64,000 nt of DNA from Candidatus Magasanikiibacteriota bacterium (GTDB taxonomy: Bacteria > Patescibacteriota > Patescibacteriia > Magasanikbacterales > UBA922): assembly GCA_016207245.1 (NCBI GenBank), contig JACQQA010000005.1, forward strand, positions 64,068-128,067. Reading direction: 5' to 3'. The position numbers were made by a program, and so were the translations under genes. The notes beneath the pieces were generated by a model. That model had not been told where the DNA came from, ran no database searches, and was given only the letters and a program-made list of their open reading frames with translations. Positions 34,241-34,345 of this stretch are shown in pieces. The number at the start of each line of letters is the position of its first letter. Positions within the stretch are counted from its first letter, which is position 1.

Positions 34241-34269
34241 TTGACAAATTGTAATTTCTTATGTATTAT
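34241..34269 (+). promoter_or_regulatory. Promoter of a short transcript
   Basis: TTGACA (34241-34246), 17-nt spacer, TATTAT (34264-34269). Confidence 0.6.
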
Positions 34270-34275
34270 ACCCTT

Positions 34276-34345
34276 GTTATCAGTTAGCGAACCGTATACG
34301 TTGCGTATCGGCAAAACACTCTTTAGGGAGTGTTTTTGCTTTTTA
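34276..34345 (+). ncRNA. Candidate ~70-nt small RNA complementary to parts of the adjacent tRNA-like gene
   Basis: Bounded by the promoter above and by the terminator AAAACACTCT-ttag-GGAGTGTTTT-TGCTTTTT (34313-34345). 34276-34312 is the reverse complement, in permuted order, of the anticodon-loop and V-arm/T-arm segments of 34379-34464. Confidence 0.4.

Follow-up and report, generated by a model that had tools for sequence, protein, structure and literature searches.

The window studied here, a 64-kb stretch of DNA assigned to Candidatus Magasanikiibacteriota, is part of the chromosome of a Candidate Phyla Radiation (CPR) bacterium. It carries housekeeping genes, among them those for topoisomerase I, a FolC-like Mur-ligase-family protein, DprA, peptidyl-tRNA hydrolase (Pth) and Der, and the genomes nearest to it are metagenome-assembled genomes of Candidatus Magasanikbacteria. 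A 270-nt intergenic gap with a minus-strand gene on each side is occupied by two adjacent units, a predicted small RNA (sRNA) and a tRNA-like gene with a long variable (V) arm, which we refer to together as the cassette. Both lie on the plus strand and are antisense to both neighbours. The sRNA is complementary to the tRNA-like gene in three segments, A', B' and C'. The parts of the locus, given by position in the window, strand and nature, are:

32884-34212, minus strand: FolC-like gene, one flank of the cassette
34227-34235, plus strand: DnaA-box-like motif TGTGGATAT (read as TTATCCACA on the minus strand), with the -35 hexamer following after 5 nt
34241-34269, plus strand: sRNA promoter TTGACA-17-TATTAT, 11/12 consensus matches
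34276-34345, plus strand: predicted sRNA ('anti-tRNA') of about 70 nt, with a single-stranded 5' seed, an internal hairpin and an intrinsic terminator
34273-34289, plus strand: segment A', complementing the anticodon arm (5' stem strand, full loop and first 3'-strand bases; 34405-34421)
34288-34300, plus strand: segment B', complementing 34436-34448, where the V-arm 3' strand, the T-stem 5' strand and the first part of the T loop lie
34304-34312, plus strand: segment C', complementing the end of the anticodon stem and the V-arm 5' strand (34421-34429)
34313-34345, plus strand: sRNA intrinsic terminator, a 10-pair stem (34313-34336) followed by TGCTTTTTAT, with the T tail reaching to about 34345
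34351-34359, plus strand: extended -10 promoter TGaTATAAT of the tRNA-like gene, as read from the sequence
34365-34370, plus strand: 5' leader strand CGGCGG, which can pair with CCGCCG at 34462-34467
34379-34464, plus strand: tRNA-like gene, about 35 nt downstream of the sRNA terminator, with an 8-bp acceptor stem, 4-bp T stem, 6-bp D stem with a 4-nt loop, long V arm and discriminator G
34413-34415, plus strand: anticodon GAU, in the loop UUGAUAA
34469-34505, plus strand: terminator of the tRNA-like gene, a 12-pair stem (34469-34497) followed by TTTTCG
34482-35213, minus strand: unannotated 243-aa gene, the other flank of the cassette

The upstream unit carries the signals of a transcript of its own. 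Its promoter and terminator are both present as described in the first-pass annotation of this DNA, and transcription is predicted from the promoter to start 6-7 nt past the -10 hexamer. The RNA so delimited has a predicted fold of -20.6 kcal/mol (z = -2.8), in which the internal hairpin is formed by B' paired with C'. A short non-coding unit with its own promoter and intrinsic terminator, both predicted at the level of consensus, is what is expected of a trans-acting base-pairing sRNA. No known RNA family for it is found in Rfam 15, at curated thresholds or at permissive E-values; a match to the rnk leader was rejected as merely the terminator. Protein coding was rejected as well, since neither the 74-aa open reading frame (ORF) at 34190-34414 nor the antisense frames are conserved, and the same holds for a Val-Ile-Ser-stop mini-frame in the sRNA seed.

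The three blocks of complementarity between the sRNA and the tRNA-like gene amount to about 36 pairs. A 12-nt match with one mismatch had been noticed earlier (34276-34287 against 34407-34418, 11/12); it was found and lengthens to the whole of A', where 15 of 17 positions match as DNA (34273-34289 against 34405-34421) and 14 contiguous pairs, one of them G·U, form as RNA. The lone mismatch of the 12-mer places an sRNA G opposite a tRNA U and is a wobble pair in RNA. The two perfect matches previously reported were likewise recovered, at 13/13 for B' (34288-34300 against 34436-34448) and at 7/7 for C' (34304-34310 against 34423-34429), the latter extending to 9 pairs with one G·U (34304-34312 against 34421-34429). 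The swap in segment order is real: the sRNA reads A'-B'-C', the tRNA-like gene A-C-B. The V-arm stem sequence CGTATACG is palindromic, and the 13-mer is thus partly self-complementary; the copy can be called inverted despite this palindrome because the flanking CGAAC/GTTCG and the side of the bulge fix its orientation. When the 43-nt sRNA body was compared with the tRNA-like gene after dinucleotide-preserving shuffling, none of 5000 shuffles reached a perfect run of 13 nt (mean 6.0, maximum 12) and in none of the 5000 did runs of 7 nt or longer cover 27 nt. The complementarity in the window is not due to chance. Within the 64-kb window, no further copies or targets were found beyond chance expectation.

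The neighbouring tRNA-like gene is real but non-canonical. ARAGORN and the Rfam model RF00005 both miss it, though five ordinary tRNAs of the window are called, and a canonical 7/5 elongator tRNA was rejected on this ground. The Rfam tRNA-Sec model (RF01852) aligns with it from end to end at 37 bits, against a threshold of 47 (E = 8e-6, local search), and the acceptor stem GGAGAGUA/UGCUCUCC and the T stem ACGG/CCGU are visible in this alignment; with the score below threshold and the anticodon GAU instead of UCA, identity as tRNA-Sec was also rejected. The first six acceptor pairs and G73 match those of the window's ordinary tRNA-Ser(GCU), and the anticodon loop is the same as in its ordinary tRNA-Ile(GAU). 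Sequence features that fit a serine identity (G73, the tRNA-Ser-like GGAGAG start of the acceptor and the long V arm) are in this way combined with the non-serine anticodon GAU. The promoter of the gene is without a -35 element and is weaker than the near-consensus promoter of the sRNA.

Such a combination recalls the allo-tRNAs, 8/4 and 9/3 tRNA-Sec-like molecules of serine type with non-serine anticodons, which insert serine in E. coli whatever their anticodon (PMC5389517, PMC7609411). Like them, the tRNA-like gene has a 12-bp acceptor branch split 8/4, a long V arm, a tRNA-Sec-like D arm with a 6-bp stem and a 4-nt loop, G73 and a non-serine anticodon. It looks like an allo-tRNA, one that probably accepts serine and would read isoleucine codons, and it would extend the 8/4 allo-tRNA type to the CPR. 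Allo-tRNAs have been found by toxin-antitoxin and mobile elements and are suspected of being missense suppressors or regulatory RNAs (PMC5389517); the papers on them describe no GAU anticodon, no CPR host and no antisense partner (PMC5389517, PMC7609411).

The cassette was seen in 10 distinct versions, in the window and at nine loci of other genomes and metagenomes, namely L005, L002 (identical to L004, L026 and L050), L021, L032, L046, L057, L042, L060 and L061. Sampling consisted of one genome scan and one metagenome scan, and a scan anchored on the sRNA alone covered viral contigs. The metagenome contigs were scanned with the exact pattern of the tRNA-like 3' end, which gave 49 loci; seven of these (L021 to L061 in the above order) hold a complete cassette in unrelated surroundings. 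The order and spacing of parts are constant over the 10 versions while the flanking genes differ. The common layout is, from 5' to 3':

first, the -35 and -10 hexamers of the sRNA, then the complement of the anticodon arm
second, a GAACC(G)UAU-type stretch complementing the V-arm 3' and T-stem 5' strands
third, a short loop, the complement of the V-arm 5' strand and a terminator
fourth, a second promoter, a short leader, the 8/4 tRNA-like gene (mostly GAU) and a second terminator

Around the FolC-like gene itself, the relatives compare with the window as follows:

L002 (= L004), FolC 79-80% identical: both units present
L005, FolC 79% identical: both units present
L001, FolC 82% identical: about 230 bp deleted, which removes the sRNA entirely and the first two-thirds of the tRNA-like gene, leaving only TTCGACTCCGTTGCTCTCCGCC and the terminator
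L006, L007 and L003, FolC 70%, 67% and 59% identical, respectively: cassette absent from the locus

The cassette is hence a compact, mobile element of patchy distribution, present in the window, L002 and L005, deleted in L001, absent from the locus in L003, L006 and L007, and found elsewhere in unrelated contexts that include an intein. Where present, it keeps its expression signals. L002/L004 and L005 retain promoters and terminators with different spacer and stem sequences, and the terminator of the tRNA-like gene is kept in L001, L002 and L005. TTGACA is exact in eight of the nine cassettes that include upstream sequence, with spacers of 16-17 nt and -10 hexamers of the TATAAT type in the alignment, and a terminator follows the sRNA in every cassette, its stem sequence differing each time. 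The architecture of seed, hairpin and terminator is the same in 10/10 cassettes. In the eight cassettes with a clear -10 hexamer, the anticodon-arm complement, with which the predicted sRNA 5' end coincides, begins 5-8 nt past this hexamer and therefore sits at the predicted transcription start. A TGnTAnAAT-type element precedes the tRNA-like gene at the same position in most cassettes.

Co-occurrence of the two units in relatives, by which the first-pass annotation had proposed to judge its reading, was found. All 10 tRNA-like genes of this type have an upstream unit with promoter and terminator, about 17 other tRNAs that share the 3' end are without one, and no intact tRNA-like gene lacking the sRNA was seen among the loci examined. 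The upstream complement is continuous over 14-16 nt (G·U counted) in 8/10 tRNA-like genes of the type; the other two, L032 (misplaced search window) and L061 (a bulge), scored short, and separate pairing analysis gave 14 pairs for L032 and 8+6 for L061. Among about 17 other distinct scorable tRNAs with the same 21-nt 3' end, which include 8/4 tRNA-Ser (GCU, GGA) and tRNAs of phage clusters, tRNA-Ala-like matches not being scorable, the upstream complement reaches only 6-11 nt. In both L001 and L052 the sRNA was lost jointly with the 5' part of the tRNA-like gene. The remnants (L001:2221-2284 and L052:2641-2708) consist of T loop, acceptor 3' strand and terminator only, and the sequence upstream of the L052 remnant is an unrelated element with 24-nt inverted ends.

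Matches of the tRNA 3' pattern on viral contigs were rejected as cassettes, being ordinary or 8/4 phage tRNAs without sRNA, and those of the sRNA pattern were chance matches inside coding sequence. No blastn match that would point to a phage or plasmid origin was obtained in 50,697 phage or 72,556 plasmid records. The 8/4 tRNA-Ser genes with GCU and GGA anticodons lie in tRNA clusters, some of them on viral contigs (L016:8155-8256, L027:587-678, L064:13106-13197 and L023); they have acceptor and T-arm sequence in common with the tRNA-like gene and no partner sRNA, and the GAU form likely derives from this pool of genes.

These data bear on the alternative, raised in the first-pass annotation, that an inverted partial duplication at a hotspot of recombination or integration left the complementarity behind as a neutral scar, and on the related one of inverted repeats that serve a DNA invertase or recombinase. 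tRNA genes are indeed common integration targets, the remnants in L001 and L052 break in or beside the T loop, and the cassette sits in varied places including inteins. Against a scar speak the conservation of a near-consensus promoter and a terminator, a permuted layout that is the same across very divergent sequences and flanks, and compensatory changes and wobbles (described below) which maintain pairing while loops and spacers diverge freely; no recombinase gene was found among the genes flanking the cassette. Because of the co-occurrence, the compensatory changes, the roughly 17 tRNAs free of the unit and the joint loss in two decayed loci, we reject the scar and regard it as very improbable.

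Covariation was analysed in a 10-sequence alignment with two in-register intermolecular helices, A and B, of 25 pairs in total. In these helices 94.0% of cells are paired, compared with 81.3% in column shuffles (0/500 as high) and 26-38% with slid partners. Eleven of the 25 pairs change on both sides, compared with 5.5 in shuffles (0/500), a measure rarely inflated by relatedness in the tool's own trials, and the covariation score is 0.375 against 0.153 in shuffles. Compensatory change thus keeps the complementarity in relatives, as the first-pass annotation would have it for interacting units and as is expected of a trans-acting base-pairing sRNA. Segment A' forms 14-16 pairs in 9/10 cassettes, the exception being L061 with 8+6 and a bulge, and 8/14 of its pairs change on both sides; B' forms 11-17 pairs in 8/10 cassettes, with 3/11 pairs changing on both sides and 93.5% of cells paired; C' forms 7-12 pairs in the other cassettes. 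Positions 32 and 38 of the anticodon loop form no Watson-Crick pairs inside a tRNA. Here both co-vary with the sRNA (AU 5, GC 4 and GU 1 at one, GC 5 and UA 4 at the other), and all cells are Watson-Crick bar one G·U, leaving aside the out-of-register L061. L061 itself has a different loop (CCUAAGCA) and an sRNA altered to match (UGCUUAGG). The non-Watson-Crick cells comprise 12 G·U, 5 A·C and 5 others, and three of four sRNA substitutions opposite the invariant GGUUC retain a wobble pair.

Duplex prediction, likewise proposed in the first-pass annotation, favours the cognate pairs. RNAduplex energies average -38.3 kcal/mol for cognate and -30.2 kcal/mol for non-cognate combinations, the own tRNA-like RNA is the best partner for 9/10 sRNAs, and predicted heterodimer formation gains 4-15 kcal/mol over the separate monomers.

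The cloverleaf of the tRNA-like RNA co-varies as well. It is the minimum-free-energy fold, in 8/4 form, in 8/10 cassettes; 96.2% of its cells are paired over the 10 cassettes and 14/29 pairs change on both sides, including 6/6 in the D stem. The acceptor and T helices are paired at 100%, with one T-stem pair compensated, and the V stem at 93%. Selection on the cloverleaf is strongly supported by these patterns. The 5' strand of the anticodon stem therefore serves two partners, the cloverleaf and the sRNA, as expected for strand displacement.

A third set of co-varying pairs lies in the precursor of the tRNA-like RNA. CCGCCG at 34462-34467 runs from the final two bases of the acceptor through the discriminator into the 3' trailer, and complementarity of leader to trailer over 6-11 pairs co-varies in 9/10 cassettes (for example CGGCGG/CCGCCG and UACCGGAGA/UCUCCGGUA); in L061 the longest run of the leader pairs with the acceptor 3' strand only. 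This helix, a feature of the present cassette unlike the described allo-tRNAs, would rival the acceptor stem and might prevent cleavage by RNase P or maturation of the 3' end. It also shows that structure matters at the level of the precursor, a point in favour of a second alternative: that there is only one RNA, with the 'sRNA' as its 5' leader, joined on by read-through of the terminator and pairing in cis, as a folding switch or attenuator by which maturation of the tRNA-like RNA regulates itself. The units are, moreover, always adjacent, co-oriented and at a near-fixed spacing, and in a fold of 34270-34500 as a single molecule (-79.8 kcal/mol, z = -4.2) the 5' segment is paired to the anticodon arm. 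A single transcript is difficult to reconcile with the strong U-tract terminator conserved between the units, with the TGnTAnAAT promoter that stands between them in most cassettes, and with a locus in which the order of the two genes is reversed and the sRNA has a promoter of its own. We therefore consider this alternative unlikely.

The locus in question, L077, was reached by searching with an intein peptide of L060. The L060 cassette (9841-10119, plus strand) lies inside an intein (minus-strand ORF 9620-10325), antisense to it, in frame and with no stop codon. The host open frame exceeds 4260 codons and matches the Pfam family Intein_splicing at E = 2e-14; the insert is of about 90 aa, and the cassette stands between the N- and C-terminal splicing blocks, the usual slot of a homing endonuclease. 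L077:537-790 (minus strand) is a second type of cassette, antisense to a Hint/intein ORF of Candidatus Portnoybacteria. Here an extended -10 promoter and the tRNA-like RNA come first, followed by TTGACA-17-TATACT and the sRNA up to its terminator. The tRNA-like RNA, of 68 nt, has a G3·U70 acceptor and a tiny 'anticodon' hairpin with a 4-nt loop, is tmRNA-like (transfer-messenger RNA) or of alanine type, and matches the tmRNA model in its tRNA-like domain (37 bits, E = 2.9e-12). The sRNA pairs over 19 + 9 positions (28 pairs) with nt 8-35 of the tRNA-like RNA, and all six non-Watson-Crick pairs are U·G. With the order reversed and a separate promoter, the pairing at this locus must be in trans. 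L077 is an independent case that supports RNA-level pairing in trans and speaks against the single-transcript alternative; it also indicates that a canonical anticodon is not a universal requirement of such cassettes. In L078:28-3145 and L079, several consecutive ORFs with intein-splicing domains lie beside a ParE-toxin gene, and the antisense strands of the intein inserts in L078 and L080 show TTGACA-type promoter-like sites and no detected tRNA-like RNA.

The likeness of the L077 RNA to tmRNA lends some weight to a third alternative, that the heterodimer is itself a working two-piece RNA, comparable to two-piece tmRNA or to a ribonucleoprotein scaffold, in which intermolecular helices replace the anticodon and V arms. 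Complementarity is kept and not perfected, with G·U pairs and internal loops persisting as in a structural complex, and the pairing leaves the acceptor, D and T elements unoccupied. Two-piece tmRNA (circularly permuted ssrA) also joins a tRNA-like domain to a second RNA through intermolecular helices and shows permutation. Unlike there, the acceptor stem of the present RNA is intramolecular, and the partner, an inverted complement, has a separate promoter and is not cut out of the same precursor. Its sRNA contains no conserved tag-like frame or further motif (frames checked by eye), the tRNA-like RNA alone folds as a complete co-varying cloverleaf, and the permuted segments would impose an awkward three-helix topology. 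A two-piece RNA thus has little probability in our view.

Several independent lines indicate that the pairing is selected. The two genes, each with a predicted promoter and terminator of its own, always stand together in the cassettes seen. We favour, with moderate confidence, the reading that the upstream unit is an independently transcribed antisense sRNA of about 70 nt dedicated to the adjoining tRNA-like RNA, which it would keep inactive, the two forming a two-RNA cassette. The antisense regulator suggested in the first-pass annotation is supported in this form by co-occurrence and covariation in 10 cassettes. The free 5' end of the sRNA would nucleate on the exposed anticodon loop and invade the anticodon stem, which is weak, A/U-rich and often mismatched; the sRNA hairpin, a mirror image of the V arm, would then swap strands with the V arm and the T stem. 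Such pairing would mask the anticodon, destroy the long V arm and open the tRNA elbow, and the resulting duplexes of 13-14 bp could be cleaved by RNase III. By this sequestration the tRNA-like RNA would be kept inactive.

The three regions targeted would be those that a serine tRNA needs, namely the anticodon, the V arm and the T arm with the elbow. The long V arm is the main mark read by seryl-tRNA synthetase, the T arm and elbow are needed for processing enzymes, EF-Tu and the ribosome, and the anticodon is needed for decoding. If charged and used, the tRNA-like RNA would put serine at isoleucine codons. A dedicated inhibitor would make biological sense because a serine-charged GAU tRNA would mistranslate these codons. 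Most simply, the cassette may be seen as a regulated or neutralised mis-decoding tRNA.

More speculatively, it may be an RNA-only toxin-antidote (addiction) module, with a stable tRNA-like toxin and a presumably labile, strongly promoted sRNA antidote. The strong promoter of the sRNA and the weaker one of the tRNA-like gene, the compact form, the patchy distribution and the joint loss fit this idea, and allo-tRNAs lie near toxin-antitoxin loci and some are lethal in E. coli (PMC5389517). In its widest form, an undescribed addiction or defence module of RNA only, with a mis-decoding or tRNA-mimicking toxin and a short-lived anti-tRNA sRNA, would spread selfishly through CPR genomes, in some cases in the endonuclease slot of an intein; this we put forward as tentative and rather doubtful. 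The toxin of the window would then be a serine-type 8/4 tRNA reading isoleucine codons, that of L077 an alanine-type tmRNA-like mimic, and post-segregational killing, instead of homing, could stabilise the host intein.

A fourth alternative reverses the roles: the tRNA-like RNA would be a decoy or sponge that titrates the sRNA, whose real target would be elsewhere, in the loop of tRNA-Ile(GAU) or in a messenger RNA (mRNA). The sRNA 5' end (GUUAUCAGU, 34276-34284) could form eight Watson-Crick pairs and one G·U with the loop of the window's tRNA-Ile(GAU) (53052-53128); the genuine tRNA-Ile(GAU) has the loop CUGAUAA, the same as in most of the tRNA-like RNAs. Sponges derived from tRNAs exist, an example being 3'ETS-leuZ in E. 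coli. Yet the pairing with the tRNA-like RNA is far longer (about 36 pairs) and tracks partner-specific stem and V-arm sequences without counterpart in tRNA-Ile, no other site in the 64-kb window fits the seed better than chance, and in L061 the seed has shifted with the loop of the tRNA-like RNA, away from GAU. A sponge appears quite unlikely on this evidence. With 3'ETS-leuZ and other pairs of sRNA and sponge the cassette has in common RNA:RNA titration with one member from a tRNA locus; 3'ETS-leuZ is a spacer fragment that sponges an mRNA-targeting sRNA, whereas here the tRNA-like body itself is paired and the pair is inherited as a unit.

Several points weigh against a dedicated antisense sRNA. 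Promoters, start sites and terminators are consensus predictions only, and a folded, modified tRNA is a poor antisense target, of which three stems must open. The permuted order of the segments means that one continuous duplex cannot include all three helices. L061 and L077 are without a canonical anticodon loop, so that mis-decoding toxicity cannot be universal; aminoacylation, toxicity and lability of the sRNA are properties that we infer. Only 10 distinct cassettes are at hand, found via the tRNA-like 3' end or by synteny, and orphan sRNAs would escape such searches. The sequences are related, which inflates the shuffle control, and the excess of G·U over A·C cells (12 against 5) is merely suggestive. 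The gain in stability of the heterodimer is modest, -4.4 to -6.5 kcal/mol, for the window, L005, L042, L060 and L061, and in two of these, L042 and L060, helices B and C pair weakly. Formally, the matching could also stem from gene conversion in short tracts between the two inverted copies.

Among known systems, type I (hok/sok) and type VIII (SdsR/RyeA, CreT/CreA) toxin-antitoxin pairs are similar in that a small, strongly promoted RNA beside its target neutralises it by pairing, and in being compact, self-contained and patchy, with both halves lost together. Unlike hok/sok, the target here is a tRNA-like RNA and not the mRNA of a toxic peptide. Unlike both types, the two genes are on the same strand and do not overlap, the complementary sequence comes in three blocks, inverted and in permuted order, and toxicity is only supposed. 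T-box leaders also read an anticodon by pairing, here an AUC 'codon' opposite GAU, and contact the T-arm region. In contrast to them, the sRNA is a separate terminated transcript with no Stem I and no T-box sequence for the NCCA end, and its pairing reaches into the stems and would unfold the tRNA instead of docking on it; no T-box match was obtained from Rfam in 34100-34600 at E <= 10, and no complement of the acceptor 3' end is found in the sRNA.

To our knowledge, the targets of bacterial sRNAs are mRNAs, proteins or other sRNAs. No description of an antisense RNA dedicated to a tRNA-like body was found in Rfam or in the literature searched, and a tRNA-like RNA would, as far as we know, be a new class of target for antisense-RNA regulation. 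How cells tolerate the sense-codon mistranslation expected of allo-tRNAs with "wrong" anticodons has been unexplained since 2017, and the pairing, if real, would offer the first plausible mechanism for their control. It would also establish a small-RNA family that is new and strongly co-varying, in a group of organisms with hardly explored non-coding RNAs, and would give synthetic biology a natural model for turning suppressor tRNAs on and off. The intein-embedded cassettes hint that selfish elements can be combined in a new manner.

No protein partner common to the cassettes was found, their flanks (FolC-like, the 243-aa protein, DprA, Pth and Der; elsewhere RibD_C and the giant intein-bearing protein) being mutually unrelated. 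In the window, the FolC-like gene starts with GTG at 34212, only 29 nt from the -35 hexamer of the sRNA, and a weak divergent promoter-like site on the minus strand (TTGTCA-18-AAAAAT, 34212-34247) overlaps this hexamer. If both flanking genes formed one operon, its mRNA would run antisense to the entire cassette. The DnaA-box-like motif upstream of the sRNA promoter recurs, with at most one mismatch, at the same place in 6/9 cassettes. A DnaA-box-like 9-mer (TTATCCACA or TTTTCCACA) also lies 5-9 nt upstream of TTGACA at 29361 (plus strand) and at 6272, 15037 and 58381 (minus strand). Control by DnaA specific to the cassette was rejected for this reason; because the same arrangement is found at other promoters of the window, the motif is probably a general promoter-proximal element of the lineage. 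Elsewhere in the window, a long hairpin at 21748-21858 gave sub-threshold matches to plant microRNA precursors on both strands (46 and 34 bits) and is presumably a long inverted repeat.

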